In this document: positions 1-38,946 of the stretch, piece by piece
Layout of the letters: the number at the start of each line of letters is the position of its first letter
Numbering within the stretch: the stretch's first letter is position 1
Source: Escherichia coli
GTDB taxonomy: Bacteria > Pseudomonadota > Gammaproteobacteria > Enterobacterales > Enterobacteriaceae
Length of the DNA stretch: 38,946 bases
Assembly: GCF_003334255.1 (NCBI RefSeq)
Contig: NZ_QOWU01000055.1
Direction: 5' to 3' (one strand)
Notes under the pieces: generated by a model
The model's database searches: none
What the model saw: the letters and a program-made list of their open reading frames with translations, nothing else
What the model was told of the DNA's origin: nothing
Translations under genes and position numbers: made by a program

Positions 1-62
1 AATCGGTGGAGCTGCATGACAAAGTCATCGGGCATTATCTGAACATAAAACACTATCAATAA
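1..62 (+). CDS. insB: IS1 transposase InsB, C-terminal fragment (5' end outside window)
   Basis: Frame starting at base 3 translates SVELHDKVIGHYLNIKHYQ with TAA stop at 60-62, matching the InsB C-terminus as remembered. Confidence 0.7.
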   Translation, partial: SVELHDKVIGHYLNIKHYQ

Positions 63-77
63 GTTGGAGTCATTACC
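1..77 (+). mobile_element. IS1 right-terminal segment (partial; element continues upstream of window start)
   Basis: Bases 1-77 match the 3' end of IS1 as I remember it: InsB C-terminal codons followed by the terminal inverted repeat ending AAGTTGGAGTCATTACC at position 77. Recognised from memory, no alignment run. Confidence 0.8.
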
Positions 78-271
78 TCTTCCTCCATCTTTTTTATTCT
101 TCGCGTTAATGCAGGTTGCGTAATATTGAGTAATTTAGCGGCATTGTTAAACGAACTGGACTCTGCCAGTATGACAAATGCCTTCATACTTGATAATTCA
201 TGCTTCATTATTACTCCGGAAAATGGAAGCGACGATTTTGGGTGGCTGGCCGTTAAAAATTTTAACTGCAT
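56..271 (-). pseudogene. ybhD: LysR-family transcriptional regulator truncated by IS1 (ybhD-like); only the N-terminal HTH remains
   Basis: Minus-strand ORF encodes a typical LysR HTH (MKHELSSMKAFVILAESSSFNNAAKLLNITQPALTRRIKKMEEE; likely start at 206-208). It crosses the IS1 end at 77, adds six IS-encoded codons (VMTPTY) and hits two consecutive stops (56-58, 53-55). The effector-binding domain is absent from the window. Confidence 0.7.
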
Positions 272-391
272 TTAGCCAACTTAAATTAATGAAAAAATGT
301 TATTAATCGTTGAGCTAAAGTCATTAGAGATGCTTTGCCCTTAATGTAACCATATCGCAATAAGTTATGTTTTTAAATTGAGGGCATTATT

Positions 392-1444
392 ATGAAAAAA
401 ATACCCTGCGTGATGATGCGAGGTGGAACCTCGAGGGGCGCGTTCCTGTTAGCGGAACATTTACCCGAAGATCAAACGCAGCGCGATAAAATATTGATGG
501 CAATTATGGGTTCCGGTAACGATCTGGAAATTGACGGTATTGGCGGCGGTAATCCACTGACCAGTAAAGTCGCCATTATTAGCCGTTCCAGCGATCCGCG
601 TGCTGATGTCGATTATCTGTTTGCGCAGGTAATCGTTCATGAGCAACGTGTCGATACCACGCCTAACTGCGGCAATATGCTGTCTGGTGTTGGGGCATTC
701 GCCATTGAAAATGGTTTGATTGCAGCGACTTCGCCAGTTACTCGCGTACGTATCCGCAACGTCAATACGGGTACGTTCATCGAAGCTGATGTGCAAACGC
801 CAAATGGTGTTGTCGAGTACGAGGGTAGCGCCAGAATTGACGGCGTACCGGGTACTGCCGCACCGGTTGCGCTCACTTTCCTGAATGCCGCTGGAACCAA
901 AACCGGAAAAGTTTTCCCGACTGATAATCAGATTGATTATTTTGACGATGTCCCGGTGACCTGTATCGATATGGCGATGCCAGTCGTCATTATTCCGGCT
1001 GAATATCTGGGAAAAACAGGTTATGAATTACCGGCGGAACTGGATGCCGACAAAGCATTATTAGCCCGCATTGAATCTATCCGTCTACAAGCGGGTAAAG
1101 CAATGGGCTTAGGTGATGTCAGTAATATGGTTATCCCTAAACCTGTGCTTATTTCTCCAGCGCAGAAAGGCGGGGCAATTAATGTGCGTTATTTTATGCC
1201 GCATTCTTGCCATCGCGCGCTGGCGATAACCGGTGCTATTGCTATTTCCAGTAGTTGTGCATTGGAAGGCACCGTCACCCGACAAATCGTCCCTTCTGTA
1301 GGATACGGCAATATCAATATTGAACACCCCAGTGGTGCGCTCGACGTTCATTTAAGTAATGAAGGTCAGGATGCCACGACGTTACGCGCATCTGTTATTC
1401 GGACGACCAGAAAAATATTTTCCGGTGAAGTTTATCTTCCCTGA
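392..1444 (+). CDS. ybhH: PrpF/methylaconitate-isomerase-family protein (putative isomerase)
   Basis: 350-aa ORF starting MKKIPCVMMRGGTSRGAFL; PrpF-like family resemblance; position divergent from the LysR gene. Confidence 0.85.
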   Translation: MKKIPCVMMRGGTSRGAFLLAEHLPEDQTQRDKILMAIMGSGNDLEIDGIGGGNPLTSKVAIISRSSDPRADVDYLFAQVIVHEQRVDTTPNCGNMLSGVGAFAIENGLIAATSPVTRVRIRNVNTGTFIEADVQTPNGVVEYEGSARIDGVPGTAAPVALTFLNAAGTKTGKVFPTDNQIDYFDDVPVTCIDMAMPVVIIPAEYLGKTGYELPAELDADKALLARIESIRLQAGKAMGLGDVSNMVIPKPVLISPAQKGGAINVRYFMPHSCHRALAITGAIAISSSCALEGTVTRQIVPSVGYGNINIEHPSGALDVHLSNEGQDATTLRASVIRTTRKIFSGEVYLP

Positions 1445-1483
1445 AAAAATTCGTTGTCAGGATAAGGACAATCAATAAAGGAC

Positions 1484-1504
1484 TTCTGTATGAGTCATAC
1501 AGAA
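1484..1504. promoter_or_regulatory. 21-bp perfect palindrome TTCTGTATGA-G-TCATACAGAA in the ybhH-ybhI spacer (operator or intercistronic RNA hairpin candidate)
   Basis: Checked base by base: positions 1484-1493 are the reverse complement of 1495-1504, centred on G1494. Lies 16 bp upstream of the ybhI ATG. Confidence 0.5.
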
Positions 1505-1519
1505 AGAACAGGATTTTAA

Positions 1520-2953
1520 ATGAATAAGAAATCGTTATGGAAGCTAATTCTGATATTAGCGATCCCATGTATTATTGGTTTTATGCCAGCTCCGGCAGGA
1601 TTAAGCGAACTGGCGTGGGTGCTTTTTGGTATTTACCTGGCGGCCATTGTGGGGCTGGTTATCAAGCCTTTCCCGGAACCTGTCGTACTGTTAATTGCCG
1701 TTGCTGCCTCAATGGTGGTGGTCGGTAACTTATCCGACGGTGCGTTTAAAACCACCGCCGTATTAAGCGGTTACTCTTCAGGTACCACCTGGCTGGTGTT
1801 CTCGGCGTTTACCTTAAGCGCCGCATTTGTGACCACCGGTTTAGGTAAACGTATTGCCTATCTGCTGATTGGTAAAATCGGTAACACCACGCTGGGTCTG
1901 GGTTACGTTACGGTATTCCTCGATCTGGTACTGGCTCCGGCAACACCGTCTAACACCGCGCGTGCGGGCGGCATTGTGTTACCGATCATCAACAGCGTGG
2001 CGGTGGCTTTGGGGTCCGAACCGGAAAAAAGTCCGCGTCGTGTCGGACATTACCTGATGATGTCCATTTACATGGTCACCAAAACCACCAGCTATATGTT
2101 CTTTACCGCAATGGCGGGGAACATTCTGGCGCTGAAAATGATCAACGACATTCTGCACCTGCAAATTAGCTGGGGTGGATGGGCGCTGGCAGCCGGATTG
2201 CCGGGCATCATTATGCTGCTGGTCACCCCGCTGGTGATTTACACCATGTATCCACCAGAAATTAAGAAGGTGGATAACAAAACCATCGCTAAAGCGGGCC
2301 TTGCCGAACTAGGACCGATGAAAATCCGCGAAAAAATGCTGCTCGGTGTCTTTGTGCTGGCGCTGCTGGGCTGGATTTTCAGTAAGTCTCTGGGGGTTGA
2401 TGAATCCACCGTGGCAATCGTTGTTATGGCAACCATGCTGCTGCTGGGTATCGTTACCTGGGAAGACGTGGTTAAAAATAAAGGCGGCTGGAATACCTTA
2501 ATCTGGTACGGCGGTATTATCGGCTTAAGCTCCTTATTATCGAAAGTTAAATTCTTCGAATGGTTAGCTGAAGTCTTTAAAAATAACCTGGCATTTGATG
2601 GTCACGGTAACGTTGCTTTCTTCGTTATTATTTTCCTCAGCATTATCGTGCGTTATTTCTTCGCTTCCGGTAGTGCCTATATCGTTGCTATGTTACCGGT
2701 ATTTGCCATGCTGGCGAACGTCTCCGGCGCACCGTTAATGTTAACCGCGCTGGCACTGTTGTTCTCCAACTCCTATGGCGGCATGGTTACTCACTATGGC
2801 GGCGCGGCAGGTCCGGTCATCTTTGGCGTGGGTTATAACGATATTAAATCCTGGTGGTTGGTCGGTGCGGTACTGACGATATTAACCTTCCTGGTGCATA
2901 TCACCCTCGGCGTGTGGTGGTGGAATATGCTGATCGGCTGGAACATGCTGTAA
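1520..2953 (+). CDS. ybhI: DASS-family (divalent anion:Na+ symporter-like) membrane transporter, putative di/tricarboxylate permease
   Basis: 477-aa highly hydrophobic ORF with multiple predicted TM segments; family assignment from sequence recognition and synteny. Confidence 0.85.
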   Translation: MNKKSLWKLILILAIPCIIGFMPAPAGLSELAWVLFGIYLAAIVGLVIKPFPEPVVLLIAVAASMVVVGNLSDGAFKTTAVLSGYSSGTTWLVFSAFTLSAAFVTTGLGKRIAYLLIGKIGNTTLGLGYVTVFLDLVLAPATPSNTARAGGIVLPIINSVAVALGSEPEKSPRRVGHYLMMSIYMVTKTTSYMFFTAMAGNILALKMINDILHLQISWGGWALAAGLPGIIMLLVTPLVIYTMYPPEIKKVDNKTIAKAGLAELGPMKIREKMLLGVFVLALLGWIFSKSLGVDESTVAIVVMATMLLLGIVTWEDVVKNKGGWNTLIWYGGIIGLSSLLSKVKFFEWLAEVFKNNLAFDGHGNVAFFVIIFLSIIVRYFFASGSAYIVAMLPVFAMLANVSGAPLMLTALALLFSNSYGGMVTHYGGAAGPVIFGVGYNDIKSWWLVGAVLTILTFLVHITLGVWWWNMLIGWNML

Positions 2954-2956
2954 ATA

Positions 2957-3083
2957 TTCTCGTCATACTTCAAGTTGCATGTGCTGCGTCTGCGTTCGCT
3001 CACCCCAGTCACTTACTTATGTAAGCTCCTGGGGATTCACTCGCTTGTCGCCTTCCTGCAACTCGAATTATTTAGAGTATATC
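2957..3083. repeat. ERIC/IRU intergenic repeat element
   Basis: Contains exact matches to both classical ERIC primer sequences: CGCTCACCCCAGTCACTTACTT (2997-3018, reverse complement of ERIC2) and ATGTAAGCTCCTGGGGATTCAC (3019-3040, ERIC1R). Outer boundaries are approximate. Confidence 0.85.
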
Positions 3084-3096
3084 CATTTATTATCTT

Positions 3097-3120
3097 TCTG
3101 CGCACTTCACGGTGCGCAGA
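3097..3120 (+). promoter_or_regulatory. Stem-loop (9-bp stem TCTGCGCAC/GTGCGCAGA, 6-nt loop) immediately upstream of the ybhJ RBS
   Basis: Inverted repeat read directly; sits between the ERIC element and the GGAG Shine-Dalgarno (3126-3129) of ybhJ. No T-run follows, so not a classical terminator. Confidence 0.4.
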
Positions 3121-3135
3121 TATCTGGAGCATTTG

Positions 3136-5397
3136 ATGATCAAGTTATCTGAAAAAGGCGTGTTTCTCGCCAGTAATAACGAAATAATTGCCGAAGAACA
3201 TTTCACCGGCGAAATTAAAAAAGAAGAAGCCAAAAAAGGCACTATTGCCTGGTCTATTCTCTCTTCGCATAATACGTCCGGAAATATGGATAAACTTAAA
3301 ATTAAGTTTGATTCATTAGCCTCTCACGATATTACCTTTGTTGGTATTGTACAGACCGCTAAAGCGTCCGGTATGGAACGTTTCCCGCTGCCGTATGTGC
3401 TGACCAACTGCCATAACTCACTCTGCGCCGTCGGCGGCACTATTAACGGTGATGACCATGTTTTTGGTTTATCGGCGGCCCAGCGTTATGGCGGTATTTT
3501 TGTGCCTCCGCATATTGCGGTCATCCATCAATATATGCGTGAGATGATGGCAGGCGGCGGCAAAATGATCCTCGGGTCAGACAGCCACACCCGTTACGGT
3601 GCATTAGGGACAATGGCAGTCGGTGAGGGCGGCGGTGAGTTGGTAAAACAGCTGCTTAATGACACCTGGGATATCGACTATCCGGGCGTGGTTGCGGTGC
3701 ATCTGACCGGAAAACCTGCGCCGTATGTGGGGCCACAGGATGTGGCGCTGGCTATCATTGGCGCGGTGTTCAAAAACGGTTACGTCAAAAACAAAGTCAT
3801 GGAGTTCGTTGGACCGGGCGTTAGCGCGCTCTCTACCGATTTCCGTAACAGCGTTGACGTGATGACCACTGAAACGACCTGTTTAAGTTCTGTCTGGCAA
3901 ACCGATGAAGAAGTCCATAACTGGCTGGCGCTGCACGGTCGCGGCCAGGATTACTGCCAGCTTAACCCTCAACCGATGGCGTACTACGATGGCTGCATCA
4001 GCGTTGATTTAAGCGCCATCAAACCAATGATTGCGCTGCCGTTCCACCCGAGCAACGTGTATGAAATCGACACACTGAACCAGAACCTGACCGACATTCT
4101 GCGTGAGATTGAAATTGAGTCCGAACGCGTGGCGCACGGTAAAGCCAAACTCTCGCTGCTGGATAAAGTGGAAAATGGTCGCCTGAAAGTGCAGCAGGGG
4201 ATTATCGCGGGCTGTTCTGGCGGTAACTACGAAAACGTCATCGCGGCGGCGAATGCACTGCGCGGTCAATCCTGTGGCAATGACACCTTCTCGCTGGCAG
4301 TTTACCCGTCATCACAGCCGGTGTTTATGGATCTCGCCAAAAAAGGTGTGGTAGCAGATTTGATTGGCGCAGGCGCAATCATCAGAACCGCGTTCTGCGG
4401 CCCATGCTTTGGCGCGGGCGATACGCCAATCAACAACGGTTTGAGTATTCGCCACACCACGCGTAACTTCCCGAACCGCGAAGGCTCTAAGCCAGCTAAT
4501 GGGCAGATGTCAGCGGTGGCGTTGATGGACGCTCGTTCTATCGCTGCGACTGCGGCAAACGGTGGCTATTTAACCTCTGCCAGCGAACTTGATTGCTGGG
4601 ACAACGTGCCGGAGTACGCCTTCGATGTAACGCCGTATAAAAACCGTGTTTATCAGGGCTTTGTGAAAGGGGCAACTCAGCAACCGCTGATTTACGGGCC
4701 GAACATTAAAGACTGGCCGGAATTGGGTGCGCTGACTGACAATATCGTCCTGAAAGTGTGCTCGAAGATCCTCGACGAAGTGACCACCACCGACGAACTG
4801 ATTCCTTCCGGTGAAACCTCTTCTTATCGTTCAAATCCGATTGGTCTGGCGGAGTTTACCCTGTCTCGCCGCGATCCCGGTTATGTTAGCAGAAGTAAAG
4901 CGACTGCTGAGCTGGAAAATCAGCGTCTGGCGGGGAATGTCAGCGAGCTGACAGAGGTGTTTGCGCGCATTAAGCAGATTGCTGGTCAGGAGCATATTGA
5001 TCCGCTGCAAACTGAAATTGGCAGCATGGTCTATGCGGTGAAACCAGGCGATGGTTCTGCGCGTGAACAGGCGGCGAGCTGCCAGCGTGTGATTGGCGGT
5101 CTGGCGAATATTGCCGAGGAGTACGCGACTAAACGCTATCGTTCTAACGTCATCAACTGGGGGATGTTACCGCTGCAAATGGCGGAAGTACCAACCTTTG
5201 AAGTGGGGGATTACATTTACATCCCTGGCATTAAAGCGGCGCTGGATAATCCGGGTACGACGTTTAAAGGTTATGTGATCCATGAAGATGCGCCGGTAAC
5301 GGAAATTACGCTCTATATGGAAAGTCTGACTGCTGAAGAGCGCGAGATTATCAAGGCGGGTAGTTTGATTAACTTCAATAAAAACCGTCAGATGTAA
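3136..5397 (+). CDS. ybhJ: Aconitase-family protein (putative hydratase/dehydratase)
   Basis: ORF track frame 3112..5397; ATG at 3136 preferred (GGAG 6 nt upstream) giving 753 aa. Aconitase-family resemblance across the whole length. Confidence 0.85.
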
Positions 5398-5409
5398 AAA
5401 GCGCCATGT

Positions 5410-5617
<208 letters not shown>

Positions 5618-5630
5618 TAGTTAATTGCTC

Positions 5631-6914
5631 TTACTTCTTCGCCTCTGCAACCACTTTACTACCCACGCCGCGGTTATTGTATTCCCACATGCGGTTGTAG
5701 TTAGTGTCATTCAGATTGCGCTGTATTTCGTCGTTATCATCTACGCTGCCGGTATTACCCGCAAACGGACGATTAGAGATCACCGCATCGGCCCACGGTT
5801 TAGCCGTGTTAAAACCTTCGTTGATGGCGCTATCACGGATCACCACCTGACCGTTGGTATTGGCATCAACATCCAGCGAGCGGCCCAGTTGCGCCACACC
5901 ATCACCGAAAGCATTGAAACGGCTGTTTACGGCGAGGAAACCGTAGTAAATGTTGGACAGCGTAGCCGGTGCAAACACATACGCTTCTTGCTGAGTACGT
6001 GAGTTCACCACGCGGAATTCGGTGTTATCGAACACCACTGCGCCGCGACCAGAAACGATATCCACATCCCCTTCAATGTAGCTGTTGGTCACCAGCGTAC
6101 GCGGCTGACGATTCGTTTCCAGACGGTTCTGCACACCGCTGTTGGTGACAAAGAAGGTGTTCTGACGACCGAGAATGTTAACGTTGTTAATCTGTACCTG
6201 GTCACCATCAGTACGCAGTGCCACCGCCGGATGGTTACCTGCATCTACGCTATCGCCCAGCGTGTTTTCGATGGTCAGATTTTGCAGTTGCAGGCCATTG
6301 TTTTGTGACCAGAAGACCGCAGAGCAGAGAACACCGATACTGTCGCTGCGTTTGCTCTGGCAGCTATCGTACATATACCACGCTGGTTTACCTGGCATAT
6401 ATTTGCCGCGCGGGTTGACGTCGTGACGCCAGTCGGCAGGGCTCATGCCACCATCAAGGGAAAGCCCAATCTTCACATCAATCGGTTTTTCACCTGTACC
6501 GTACAGAGTAATTCCACCCGGAGCGGCAGGGACATATACCGTTCCCTGATACTCACCAGGCATCACGGCAATATACTGGCGCTTGTTGGTACGCTTGATA
6601 ATTGCCGCATCTACCGCCGCCTGAATCGTGGTATGCGTTACACCTTGAGTGCCCGCCGGGCCGACAACAAAGTCAGGTTGCGCAGGCAGGGTAATCGGGG
6701 AAGGATTCCACGCTGCAGCACCTGGTGTCAGGGATGCAAAATAGTGTTGAGCATCGAAATTCTGCGCTTCTTTTGCCGACAGAATCGGGCGAGAAGAGGT
6801 ACCAGGCGCGGTTTGATCAGAAGGACGTTGATCGGGCGGGGTTGAGCTACAGGCGGTCAGCGTCACGCCAAAAGCCAATGCCAGCGCCAGACGGGAAACT
6901 GAAAATGTGTTCAC
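5631..6914 (-). CDS. ybhC: Outer-membrane lipoprotein, pectinesterase-like fold (putative esterase/thioesterase)
   Basis: 427-aa ORF with GTG start; N-terminus MNTFSVSRLALALAFGVTLTAC has a signal peptide plus lipobox (LTAC). Confidence 0.85.
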   Translation of the reverse strand: MNTFSVSRLALALAFGVTLTACSSTPPDQRPSDQTAPGTSSRPILSAKEAQNFDAQHYFASLTPGAAAWNPSPITLPAQPDFVVGPAGTQGVTHTTIQAAVDAAIIKRTNKRQYIAVMPGEYQGTVYVPAAPGGITLYGTGEKPIDVKIGLSLDGGMSPADWRHDVNPRGKYMPGKPAWYMYDSCQSKRSDSIGVLCSAVFWSQNNGLQLQNLTIENTLGDSVDAGNHPAVALRTDGDQVQINNVNILGRQNTFFVTNSGVQNRLETNRQPRTLVTNSYIEGDVDIVSGRGAVVFDNTEFRVVNSRTQQEAYVFAPATLSNIYYGFLAVNSRFNAFGDGVAQLGRSLDVDANTNGQVVIRDSAINEGFNTAKPWADAVISNRPFAGNTGSVDDNDEIQRNLNDTNYNRMWEYNNRGVGSKVVAEAKK

Positions 6915-7034
6915 AGGTTGCTCCGGGCTATGAAATAGAAAAATGAATCCGTTGAAGCCTGCTTTTTTATACTAACTTGAGCGAAACGGGAAGGTAAAAA
7001 GACAAAAAGTTGTTTTTAATACCTTTAAGTGATA

Positions 7035-7057
7035 CCAGATGGCATTGCGCCATCTGG
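7035..7057 (-). terminator. Hairpin (CCAGATGGC/GCCATCTGG) just downstream of the ybhB stop; possible terminator
   Basis: 9-bp inverted repeat with 5-nt loop, 9 bp beyond the ybhB stop on the minus strand. The downstream U-tract is weak, so confidence is low. Confidence 0.3.
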
Positions 7058-7065
7058 CAGAGTGA

Positions 7066-7542
7066 TTAACTAAACATCGCAGTAATCGAGGCGCTTGCCA
7101 GAGAGTGGAAATGAACGTTAAACCCGACCATCGCGCCGCTGGCACCTTCATCGACATCAATACGTTCTATATCCAGCGCGTGAACGGTAAAAATGTAGCG
7201 ATGAGTTTCGCCTTTCGGCGGTGCTGCGCCATCGTACCCGGTTTTACCAAAGTCGGTACGCGTCTGCAAAACGCCGTCTGGCATTGCTACCAGACCAGAG
7301 CCAAACCCTTGCGGTAATACGCGGGTATCAGCGGGTAAGTTAACAACTACCCAGTGCCACCAGCCGGAGCCGGTTGGCGCATCCGGGTCGTAGCAGGTGA
7401 CAACAAAACTTTTCGTTCCCGCAGGAACATCATCCCACGCCAGATGCGGTGAAATATTATCGCCATCGTAACCCATGCCGTTAAAGACATGACGATGCGG
7501 CAATTTATCGCCATCGCGCAGATCGTTACTGATGAGTTTCAT
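7066..7542 (-). CDS. ybhB: PEBP/Raf-kinase-inhibitor-like family protein
   Basis: 158-aa ORF; 58 bp downstream of bioA on the same strand, RBS AGGAGG upstream. Confidence 0.85.
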   Translation of the reverse strand: MKLISNDLRDGDKLPHRHVFNGMGYDGDNISPHLAWDDVPAGTKSFVVTCYDPDAPTGSGWWHWVVVNLPADTRVLPQGFGSGLVAMPDGVLQTRTDFGKTGYDGAAPPKGETHRYIFTVHALDIERIDVDEGASGAMVGFNVHFHSLASASITAMFS

Positions 7543-7600
7543 GAACCCTCCTTTCTTGTTTGCAGAAAGTGTAGCCAGAAACCCTCACGCGGACTTCTCG

Positions 7601-8890
7601 TTATTGGCAAAAAAATGTTTCATCCTGTACCGCGCGGTTAACCGCTGCGGTCAGACGCTGCAACTGTTGCGGGAGAATAATATAGGGCGGCATCAGGTAA
7701 ATCAGTTTGCCAAAAGGCCGGATCCAGACACCCTGTTCGACAAAGAATTTTTGCAGCGCCGCCATATTCACCGGATGAGTGGTTTCGACCACGCCAATGG
7801 CCCCCAGTACGCGCACATCGGCAACCATTTCGGCATCACGGGCGGGGGCAAGTTGCTCGCGCAGCTGTACTTCAATATCCGCCACCTGTTGCTGCCAGTC
7901 GCCAGATTCGAGAATCGCCAGGCTGGCGTTTGCTGCCGCGCAGGCCAGCGGATTGCCCATAAAAGTTGGCCCATGCATAAAGCAACCGGCTTCACCGTTA
8001 CTGATGGTTTCTGCAACCTCGCGCGTGGTGAGTGTGGCGGAAAGGGTCATTGTGCCGCCGGTTAAGGCTTTACCGAGGCACAAAATGTCCGGCGCGATTT
8101 CTGCATGTTCACAGGCAAACAGTTTCCCGGTACGACCAAATCCAGTGGCGATCTCGTCGGCAATCAGCAAGATACCTTCGCGATCGCATATTTTGCGGAT
8201 TCGTTTTAACCATTCCGGATGGTACATGCGCATCCCGCCTGCGCCCTGGACAATCGGCTCAATGATCACCGCCGCGATTTCATGACGATGCGCCGCCATC
8301 AGGCGGGCAAAGCCCACCATATCGCGCTCATCCCATTCGCCATCCATGCGGCTTTGCGGGGCGGGAGCAAACAGGTTTTCTGGCAGGTAGCCTTTCCACA
8401 GACTGTGCATTGAGTTATCCGGATCGCACACCGACATCGCGCCAAAGGTATCGCCATGATAACCATTGCGGAAGGTCAGAAAACGCTGGCGCGCTTCGCC
8501 TTTGGCTTGCCAGTACTGCAACGCCATTTTCATCGCCACTTCCACCGCTACGGAACCGGAGTCCGCGAGAAAAACGCACTCCAGCGGTTGCGGCGTCATC
8601 GCCACCAGTTTGCGGCACAGCTCAATGGCTGGCGCATGGGTGATACCGCCAAACATCACATGCGACATGGCATCAATTTGCGACTTCATCGCCGCATTAA
8701 GCTGCGGGTGATTGTAGCCGTGGATCGCCGCCCACCAGGACGACATACCGTCAACCAGGCGTCTGCCGTCAGACAAAATCAGCTCGCAACCTTCGGCGCT
8801 CACCACCGGATAAACCGGCAGAGGGGAGGTCATGGATGTGTATGGGTGCCAGATATGGCGTTGGTCAAAGGCAAGATCGTCCGTTGTCAT
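7601..8890 (-). CDS. bioA: Adenosylmethionine-8-amino-7-oxononanoate aminotransferase (DAPA aminotransferase)
   Basis: ORF track frame 7601..9001; start at ATG giving [17 protein letters not shown] (429 aa); class-III aminotransferase; divergent from bioB across the bio operator. Confidence 0.93.
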
Positions 8891-38840: not shown

Positions 38841-38883
38841 ACAATTTCTCCAAAAAGTGGGGCCTGCGCCCATAAGCGCTAAC

Positions 38884-38946
38884 TTAAGGGTTGAACCATC
38901 TGAAGAATGCGACGCCTCGGTGCCTCGTTAAGACGATGCCTCGCGT
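38884..38946 (-). CDS. 3' end of an upstream minus-strand gene (by synteny possibly the catecholate siderophore receptor fiu); partial
   Basis: Open minus-strand frame entering from the window edge and stopping at 38884-38886, 43 bp upstream of ybiX. Too short to identify from sequence; the assignment rests on synteny only. Confidence 0.25.

Follow-up and report, generated by a model that had tools for sequence, protein, structure and literature searches.

The ybhH-ybhI-ybhJ genes of Escherichia coli as a candidate YbhD-regulated module for uptake and conversion of an aconitate-type tricarboxylate

What do three of the function-unknown 'y-genes' of the best-studied bacterium do, and do they do it as one unit? 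The genes ybhH, ybhI and ybhJ, core genes of Escherichia coli, lie beside a remnant of the regulatory gene ybhD at one end of the stretch analyzed here, a window of 38,946 nucleotides (contig NZ_QOWU01000055.1 of assembly GCF_003334255.1) that represents the gal–bio region of a K-12-like chromosome. The original prediction, made from the DNA alone, had described a PrpF-like isomerase, a DASS-family anion transporter and a full-length aconitase-family protein for which no substrate was established. This description is also that of the current curated annotation, in which the K-12 proteins are labeled 'putative isomerase YbhH', 'putative tricarboxylate transporter' and 'putative hydratase YbhJ'; the RefSeq names remain 'putative', and no substrate for YbhH, YbhI or YbhJ is established in the searchable literature naming these genes. 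The ybh locus is a long-known K-12 orphan that is built from known families and is an ordinary kind of catabolic module. We consider it highly probable that it is a regulated module for the uptake and conversion of an unsaturated tricarboxylate, and we give an even chance to the more specific proposal, which rests on homologs and their gene contexts, that this is an aconitate-type acid, most likely trans-aconitate. Two refinements of the original prediction are supported by the data presented below: the linkage of the three genes is restricted to the Enterobacterales, and the context of their homologs in other taxa points to aconitate and citrate chemistry.

The grouping of the three genes is not due to chance. 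No fewer than 5,239 of the 5,426 complete E. coli genomes have the cluster, and its gene order is shared by E. albertii, Citrobacter, Edwardsiella and Klebsiella, in the last of these at a different site on the chromosome. Purifying selection on ybhH, ybhI and ybhJ is strong, with ratios of nonsynonymous to synonymous substitution rates (dN/dS) of 0.02-0.10 overall (0.02-0.03 in comparison with E. albertii; 0.04-0.10 with Citrobacter and Edwardsiella). The predicted gene content agrees with the profile and Pfam matches described below, and the YbhH, YbhI and YbhJ proteins encoded in the window are the K-12 proteins, without differences.

YbhJ contains the Pfam domains Aconitase (PF00330, residues 41-470, E = 6e-88) and Aconitase_C (PF00694, residues 638-684, E = 6e-6), scores 1541 bits on an NCBIfam model of its own (NF008503, 'hydratase') and aligns with pig mitochondrial aconitase in three blocks, the pairwise alignment from which the pig numbering used here was taken. 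A YbhJ protein lacking the Fe-S ligands and active-site residues of aconitases had been named in advance as an observation that would speak against the module, and this is not what was seen. The Fe-S cysteines C360, C421 and C424 (C358, C421 and C424 of the mitochondrial enzyme) are present, and none of them varies among the 77 family members aligned. YbhJ also keeps H131, D149/S150/H151, E246, R443, R448, S641 and R643, all of them invariant in its orthologs and corresponding to H147, D165/S166/H167, E262, R447, R452, S642 and R644 of the mitochondrial enzyme, residues whose catalytic and substrate-binding roles in aconitase are well established. In all, the E. coli protein retains the three cluster ligands and 14 of the 17 catalytic positions checked, and each of these 17 positions matches the E. 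coli residue in 71 of 71 orthologs. Elsewhere in the protein, His64 stands in place of Gln72 of mitochondrial aconitase.

For aconitase activity of YbhJ the support is contextual and comes from the neighbors of its orthologs in other bacteria. A scan with one genome per species returned 80 loci, 77 of them non-enteric, and the neighboring genes were clustered and identified by NCBIfam and Pfam. The orthologs, 67-73% identical to the E. coli protein, are found in gut Clostridia (Enterocloster, Hungatella, Lacrimispora, Blautia and Butyrivibrio), Collinsella, Megasphaera, Erysipelotrichaceae and Synergistales. The genes ybhD, ybhH and ybhI adjoin ybhJ at three loci only, all in Enterobacterales. 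Citrate synthase is encoded directly adjacent to the YbhJ ortholog at 15 loci (PRK14032, 588 bits against a cut-off of 426), an isocitrate dehydrogenase (ICDH)-like gene is nearby at 17, and citrate lyase subunits are encoded at eight (CitF, 645 against 501 bits; CitD, 116 against 63.5; and a CitE-like gene), with a PrpF-family gene and a CitMHS/MatC-family permease at seven loci each. Three loci read as complete pathways: in L020, a divergent LysR gene is followed by permease–PrpF-like–YbhJ–CitE–CitF–CitG–CitC; in L068, likewise behind a divergent LysR gene, the order is PrpF-like–permease–YbhJ–CitD–CitE–CitF; and L064 has a similar arrangement. A metagenomic locus, L009, places a LysR gene beside ICDH-like–PrpF–YbhJ-like. 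These contexts are read most simply if the YbhJ type is taken as a genuine aconitase, which in the citrate lyase operons would link imported aconitate to the lyase.

YbhH is identical to a solved chain deposited as 'putative isomerase YbhH' (6OTV_A), although no paper was found for PDB 6OTV in the searchable literature. Its PrpF-like character was confirmed by PrpF-family profile and structure matches, and both the fold and the catalytic Lys/Cys pair place it in the PrpF superfamily (PF04303): K59 (in TSK59) and C93 (in NC93GN) align with the catalytic K73 and C107 of SoPrpF, a pair that is essential in the Shewanella protein (PMC5690661). By profile score YbhH is closer to the LigU/GalD type than to PrpF itself. 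Its next-best structure is that of LigU, a (4E)-oxalomesaconate Δ-isomerase (E = 3e-93, 46% identity), followed by methylitaconate isomerase (3G7K, E = 2e-67) and PrpF (E = 7e-48); it scores 515.2 bits on the 4-oxalomesaconate tautomerase model NF033377 (GalD/LigU), above the curated cut-off of 440, and 187 bits on the prpF equivalog TIGR02334, below the cut-off of 440.55. The gene context of PrpF proper is also missing, in that no prp or acnD genes are found near E. coli ybhH.

The closest relatives of YbhH outside the Enterobacteriaceae are 61-64% identical to it, and hence nearer than LigU, and their surroundings concern tricarboxylates. In Pseudomonas, a LysR gene stands beside YbhH-like–SDF carrier–CitMHS carrier–OprD-family porin; in Dickeya dadantii 3937, beside YbhH-like–MFS–FAH-family enzyme–CitC–CitD–CitE–CitF; and in Azotobacter, beside YbhH-like–CitMHS–TerC–OprD, a cluster that directly adjoins tcuR-tcuA-tcuB, of which tcuAB are the genes for conversion of tricarballylate to cis-aconitate. 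Klebsiella aerogenes carries the whole ybhDHI-J module beside a citA/citB-type sensor pair and the oxaloacetate decarboxylase genes oadAB. At the Pseudomonas and Azotobacter loci the isomerase is the sole enzyme gene encoded with the transporters, an arrangement that would fit a substrate that becomes a central metabolite by a single isomerization, by analogy with the tarRAB system discussed below. In K. aerogenes, where the module lies outside the gal-bio region, an extra CitMHS-family permease gene is located between ybhI and ybhJ (L100 5683-6945).

The assignment of YbhI to the DASS family was borne out by a score of 553.9 bits on TIGR00785 over residues 23-468, far above the cut-off of 198.6. 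Over its full length, YbhI shares 33-34% identity with CitT and TtdT, the citrate:succinate and tartrate:succinate antiporters of E. coli, and its best solved relatives are the chloroplast DiT1/DiT2 carriers (2-oxoglutarate/malate and dicarboxylate translocators) and bacterial DASS exchangers.

These observations suggest the following scheme. The LysR-type protein YbhD would keep the operon off, a proposal for which repression of ybhH is taken from the literature and the assignment of an operator is our own. YbhI would import an aconitate-type acid, probably in exchange for succinate or malate; YbhH would shift the double bond by allylic proton transfer, converting trans-aconitate to cis-aconitate; and YbhJ, as a divergent [4Fe-4S] aconitase, would hydrate cis-aconitate to citrate or isocitrate. 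The product would then be consumed by citrate lyase (citCDEFXG) under anaerobic conditions or by isocitrate dehydrogenase under aerobic conditions. E. coli K-12 carries citT-citCDEFXG.

In this strain the proposed repressor has been lost. The LysR regulator gene adjacent to ybhH had been described as disrupted, and the end of a copy of the insertion sequence (IS) IS1 indeed cuts ybhD after codon 43 of the 317 codons of the intact gene, as judged by comparison with the intact YbhD of strain CM13; the match to K-12 begins only at position 78, directly after the IS1 end. Because part of the N-terminal helix-turn-helix, amounting to less than the winged-helix domain, is all that remains and the effector domain is gone, the allele should be null. 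The exact IS1-ybhD junction was absent, as a contiguous match, from the 5,426 complete E. coli genomes. A ybhD deletion strongly up-regulates ybhH, and a YbhD ChIP-exo site at ybhH/ybhI and regulation by Nac have been described (Rodionova et al. 2022, PMC9068703). In view of this published effect on ybhH, it was reasonable to suppose that expression is deregulated in the present strain, and we would expect the module to be constitutively de-repressed here; the supplements of the study contain no ybhI or ybhJ fold-changes, the strong de-repression being reported for ybhH only. Since the IS1 transposase reading direction runs toward ybhH, read-through from IS1 could add to the de-repression. Three blocks of the divergent ybhD/ybhH control region (Table 1) do not vary among E. 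coli, E. albertii, Citrobacter and Edwardsiella, whereas the rest of the spacer has diverged, and we infer that the first of them, a dyad of the type bound by LysR-type transcriptional regulators (LTTRs), is the operator of YbhD. A preference of IS1 for this locus was considered and dropped: because the query included 77 bases of IS1, matches bearing IS1 were ranked artificially high.

Several observations weigh against the proposal that the module serves trans-aconitate by way of an active aconitase. YbhJ falls below every curated aconitase, isopropylmalate and homoaconitase cut-off, reaching 343 of the 612 bits required for PRK07229, at most 96 bits on AcnA models (cut-offs of at least 686) and at most 51 on AcnB models (at least 782). 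The Asp100-His101 pair of aconitase is not kept: in the YbhJ family the motif reads N-C-H-N, C92 replacing the Asp, whereas D-H is present in AcnA, LeuC, mitochondrial aconitase and PRK07229-type proteins. YbhJ has Val for Asn258 and Ala642 for Ser643 as well. (A MAFFT register that placed H93 on Asp100 was rejected in favor of the phmmer register, CHN/DHN, which lies one column off and gives the better local match.) Blank, Green and Guest reportedly found in 2002 that a ybhJ knock-out left the residual aconitase activity of an acnAB mutant unchanged. Because ybhD was intact in that work, ybhJ was probably silent and its expression was not ensured, and the negative result does not show that YbhJ is inactive. 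Citing the same authors, Krisko et al. (2014, PMC4054840) describe YbhJ as an aconitase paralog that is 'catalytically inactive'. Outside the Enterobacterales, ybhJ was never linked to a DASS gene among the 80 loci, 38 of which had no informative neighbor. With an identity to YbhH of only 34-41%, the PrpF-like proteins encoded beside YbhJ in Clostridia are not its orthologs. The NCBIfam equivalog call on YbhH is 4-oxalomesaconate tautomerase, and its closest characterized relative is LigU. Growth on trans-aconitate is not known for E. coli K-12. Finally, the published growth phenotype of the ybhD deletion involves L-malate rather than aconitate (PMC9068703).

Some of these points also count in favor of other substrates. 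The main rival, which we regard as unlikely, is a lignin- or gallate-derived acid: YbhI would import 4-oxalomesaconate (OMA) or an analogue, YbhH would be an OMA Δ-isomerase, and YbhJ would replace LigJ/GalB in forming 4-carboxy-4-hydroxy-2-oxoadipate (CHA). The NF033377 score (515 against 440 bits) and the rank of LigU as the nearest characterized structure speak for such a role of YbhH, and because OMA is structurally the oxalyl homologue of trans-aconitate, an aconitase-type hydratase would be chemically plausible. What argues against OMA is the company these genes keep. In E. coli, Klebsiella, Pseudomonas, Dickeya and Azotobacter, the surrounding 7-10 kb contained no ring-cleavage dioxygenase, GalB/LigJ hydratase or GalC/LigK aldolase, the neighbors of every YbhH-clade gene examined having citrate or tricarboxylate functions instead; no CHA aldolase gene is linked to the module; and YbhJ orthologs with an identical active-site fingerprint reside in citrate synthase–isocitrate dehydrogenase operons. 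We attach a similarly low probability to another unsaturated or branched acid, such as 2-methylaconitate, methylitaconate/dimethylmaleate (the Mii–DmdAB steps of nicotinate fermentation), homoaconitate, citraconate/mesaconate or a product of hydroxycitrate or isocitrate lactone. The PrpF family spans all of these allylic isomerizations, YbhH matches methylitaconate isomerase better than it matches PrpF, some YbhJ orthologs are named '2,3-dimethylmalate dehydratase large subunit' in databases, and a second clostridial PrpF-like clade that occurs with aconitase paralogs, ICDH-like genes and a Pgl-like lactonase makes several substrates probable within the family at large. However, the dimethylmalate dehydratase names are automatic transfers, the prpF equivalog score lies far below its cut-off, no dimethylmalate lyase, prp genes or CoA-transferases are linked to the module, and it is citrate lyase, citrate synthase, CitMHS carriers and tcuAB that recur as partners.

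Two further alternatives were considered. That the locus is a C4-dicarboxylate module, in which YbhI is an L-malate carrier and YbhH and YbhJ are accessory or unrelated, has little probability in our judgment. In glycerol minimal medium, the ybhD deletion showed its growth phenotype only with added L-malate, from which the authors suggested a 'malate-related' role (PMC9068703), and the best solved relatives of YbhI include malate and dicarboxylate translocators. Yet use of malate requires neither an allylic isomerase nor an aconitase-type enzyme, ybhH, ybhI and ybhJ move and persist as one unit, and exchange by YbhI of its substrate for succinate or malate would explain the phenotype equally well, with malate as the counter-substrate. 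The least probable of the alternatives is that YbhJ is a non-catalytic paralog, for example a redox or iron sensor or an RNA-binding protein, and that the three genes do not form one pathway. The change of the canonical Asp100 to Cys, the existence of truly degenerate relatives (P0148 and P0156) and the unchanged aconitase activity that the 2002 knock-out is said to have shown all count in its favor, the last of these having been obtained with ybhD intact and the gene probably silent. In addition, a ybhJ deletion is H2O2-sensitive and has lowered NADPH (PMC4054840), a deficit also expected from loss of isocitrate supply. Retention of the three cluster ligands and 14 of 17 catalytic positions, the identity of those positions in orthologs within citrate synthase/ICDH and citrate lyase operons, and a dN/dS of 0.03-0.04 for ybhJ argue against a protein that has abandoned catalysis.

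The aconitate-type module is the reading that we carry forward, and it has a broader form, which we put forward tentatively as possible rather than probable: the YbhJ type may constitute a distinct, horizontally spread Cys-His subfamily of aconitases that serves many gut anaerobes as the aconitase of a tricarboxylic acid-cycle branch and E. coli as a third aconitase, in a cryptic, YbhD-repressed route by which dietary trans-aconitate is fermented or assimilated via citrate lyase. If true, E. coli would possess a third aconitase and a hidden capacity for trans-aconitate use, the '4-oxalomesaconate tautomerase' label of YbhH and the 'catalytically inactive' description of YbhJ would be corrected, and a function would be assigned to a widespread aconitase subfamily of gut Clostridia and Collinsella. 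Trans-aconitate is a potent inhibitor of aconitase and is abundant in grasses, cane and maize, and for this reason it is present in herbivore and human guts, where the module would represent a nutrient-niche or detoxification trait relevant to colonization. The ybhD::IS1 allele should provide a ready-made de-repressed mutant, and the model gives a specific hypothesis that is cheaply testable.

The features of the locus are collected in Table 1. The start of ybhJ is the ATG at 3136 in RefSeq, where the NCBIfam profile also begins and which has GGAG 7 nt upstream; the GTG at 3112 is merely the start of the longest open reading frame.

Table 1. Features of the ybhD–ybhHIJ region, in window coordinates
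Feature	Position	Strand	Description	Proposed function and basis
IS1 3' end including terminal inverted repeat	1-77	+	100% match to IS1 copies	
ybhD remnant	78-208	-	codons 1-43 native, then IS1-derived codons, stop at 56	
Candidate YbhD operator	285-307		ATTAAT-N11-ATTAAT dyad, LTTR T-N11-A type, in the divergent ybhD/ybhH control region	
Further conserved block	317-327		AAAGTCATTAG, ybhD/ybhH control region	
Further conserved block	344-353		ATGTAACCAT, ybhD/ybhH control region	
ybhH	392-1444	+	intact; 350 aa; PrpF-fold allylic isomerase	aconitate isomerase, trans-aconitate to cis-aconitate (proposed from homolog gene contexts and the Lys/Cys pair)
Hairpin	1483-1505	+	perfect 10-bp stem in the ybhH-ybhI spacer; no T-run after; fold z = -2.5	
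ybhI	1520-2953	+	intact; 477 aa; DASS-family anion transporter	exchange of tricarboxylate for C4-dicarboxylate (proposed)
ERIC/IRU-type repeat	2956-3082		dispersed imperfect palindrome with inverted arms; weak Rfam V_AS5 match	
ybhJ	3136-5397	+	intact; 753 aa; aconitase-family [4Fe-4S] hydro-lyase; alternative GTG start 3112	aconitase, cis-aconitate to and from citrate/isocitrate (proposed from ortholog operon contexts)
REP/BIME repeat cluster	5417-5628		~100-bp tandem-like repeats between convergent ybhJ and ybhC	

The genes had been described as co-oriented and closely spaced. The open reading frames and their orientation are as stated, but the spacing needs qualification: the ybhH-ybhI gap is 75 bp, while that between ybhI and ybhJ is 182 bp, of which ~127 bp is a dispersed repeat whose median copy number per E. 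coli genome is 11. This repeat, presumably of the ERIC type by its consensus, is present in Escherichia, including E. albertii, whereas Citrobacter and Edwardsiella are without it and have ybhI-ybhJ gaps of 68-73 bp. The hairpin between ybhH and ybhI is more likely to be an RNA structure between cistrons than a terminator; E. albertii retains its stem but not the loop sequence, and neither Citrobacter nor Edwardsiella has the stem. In a scan of positions 1-7700, no terminator-like site was found on the + strand in either gap, and promoter-like sites were fewer than in shuffled sequence; these scans leave the operon structure unsettled, and co-transcription of the three genes is plausible from their arrangement. 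At its 3' end the unit is bounded by the REP/BIME cluster, in which the REP-derived Rfam family naRNA4 scores 60.7 bits (gathering threshold, 59.5); all matches of the Rfam scan were related to REP or ERIC.

As to the strain itself, the window is 100.000% identical to MG1655 over 78-7633 and differs from it over 78-38871 by 14 scattered single-base differences only, which fall in 10312-32449 (bioB/bioF to rhlE/ybiA) with none in the first 7.5 kb; the source strain is K-12-like and distinct from MG1655. The right end, 38872-38946, is the end of a multi-copy element (median 3 copies per carrying genome), which we take to be IS186 and which sits just after GC-rich K-12 sequence near ybiX/fiu; neither end insertion is present in MG1655. 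As both ends are ends of multi-copy insertion sequences, the window looks like an assembly contig bounded by IS copies. At the site of the known laboratory polymorphism ybhJ(L54I), YbhJ of this strain has the reference residue, L54, and PMC13192712 was set aside as a source on ybhJ, its mentions being the strain-genotype entry ybhJ(L54I) only. Other E. coli strains have IS1 elsewhere in this locus (L002 2843-3540 among others), either in the ybhD-ybhH spacer or within ybhI, which it splits into two 'anion permease' fragments, and many E. coli records list truncated YbhJ proteins of 634-648 aa. The ybhJ gene is up 18-fold in co-culture with Chlamydomonas (PMC10972114).

The wider YbhJ family shows several features of its own. 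At 67-73%, the identity of the E. coli protein to its counterparts in Clostridia, Collinsella (Actinomycetota), Megasphaera and Synergistales is far higher than vertical descent predicts, which suggests horizontal spread of YbhJ among gut bacteria. In Collinsella, ybhJ stands alone, near hspR-dnaK-dnaJ-clpB. The distant homologs P0148 and P0156 are without the Fe-S cysteines and the DSH motif, and their contexts were uninformative. Two such degenerate homologs (38-39% identity), at L010 8001-10966 and L011 1175-4287, are each followed by a Macro-domain gene with overlapping stop and start codons; these may represent a non-catalytic offshoot of the family. The second PrpF-like clade (63-79% mutual identity; L009 199-10202, L058 9265-15872 and L029 9259-12432) sits with two to three aconitase paralogs (YbhJ-like, 48%, and PRK07229-like, 27%) and an ICDH-like gene, and it probably belongs to a separate pathway. 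A homolog of the seven-bladed, Pgl-like lactonase precedes a CitMHS permease gene in L029 14534-16963 and L060 18375-22031, in the latter followed by a PrpF-like gene, and it clusters with E. coli pgl, itself a neighbor of ybhD (L005 3587-4582); this may be a coincidence or a hint that some modules start from a lactone.

Among characterized systems, the proven trans-aconitate system tarR–tarAB of Bacillus velezensis (PMC11495376), in which a divergent LysR gene accompanies the genes of a PrpF-family aconitate isomerase and of an importer, offers a close parallel to the proposed substrate and first step of the ybh module, the conversion of trans- to cis-aconitate, and to its layout, in which a divergent LysR gene is likewise followed by the PrpF-family isomerase gene and then by that of an inner-membrane importer. 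The two differ in that the ybh importer belongs to the DASS family while TarB is an MFS protein, that YbhD represses ybhH while TarR is a trans-aconitate-dependent activator, and that the ybh module has an aconitase-type gene of its own. Table S6 of the same study records, from a very broad profile, a 'tarA homolog' ~37-40% identical to TarA in several Enterobacteriaceae (PMC11495376). The AcnD–PrpF pair of the 2-methylcitrate cycle in Shewanella (PMC5690661) similarly combines an Fe-S hydro-lyase with a PrpF-family isomerase that has the same Lys/Cys motifs; it differs from the ybh module in the equivalog scores (187 against 440 bits for YbhH on prpF and 63 against 1420 for YbhJ on AcnD), in the absence of a prp operon from the ybh locus, in the presence there of a transporter gene, and in the likely order of the steps, isomerase then hydratase. 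LigU/GalD, of protocatechuate 4,5-cleavage and gallate breakdown, share with YbhH the fold, the Lys/Cys pair and a passing NF033377 score and are its closest characterized homologs, but their pathway partners are missing from every YbhH-clade neighborhood inspected.

Within E. coli, ttdR and ttdA-ttdB-ttdT resemble the ybh genes in having a divergent LysR gene, an Fe-S hydro-lyase and a DASS exchanger, and citT-citCDEFXG is related to them through CitT, to which YbhI is as similar as it is to TtdT, and through citrate lyase as the likely downstream step. TtdAB, however, is of the fumarase class and YbhJ of the aconitase class, and neither the ttd nor the cit module has an isomerase. The clostridial operons of L020, L064 and L068 come nearest on the side of YbhJ, which is ~70% identical there, has the same fingerprint and is encoded after a permease and a PrpF-family gene; they differ in having a CitMHS rather than a DASS permease, a PrpF-like protein of another clade and citrate lyase in the same operon, its genes being located elsewhere in E. 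coli. These operons probably encode fermentation of trans-aconitate via citrate, the route that Härtel and Buckel reportedly described in 1996 for Acidaminococcus fermentans.

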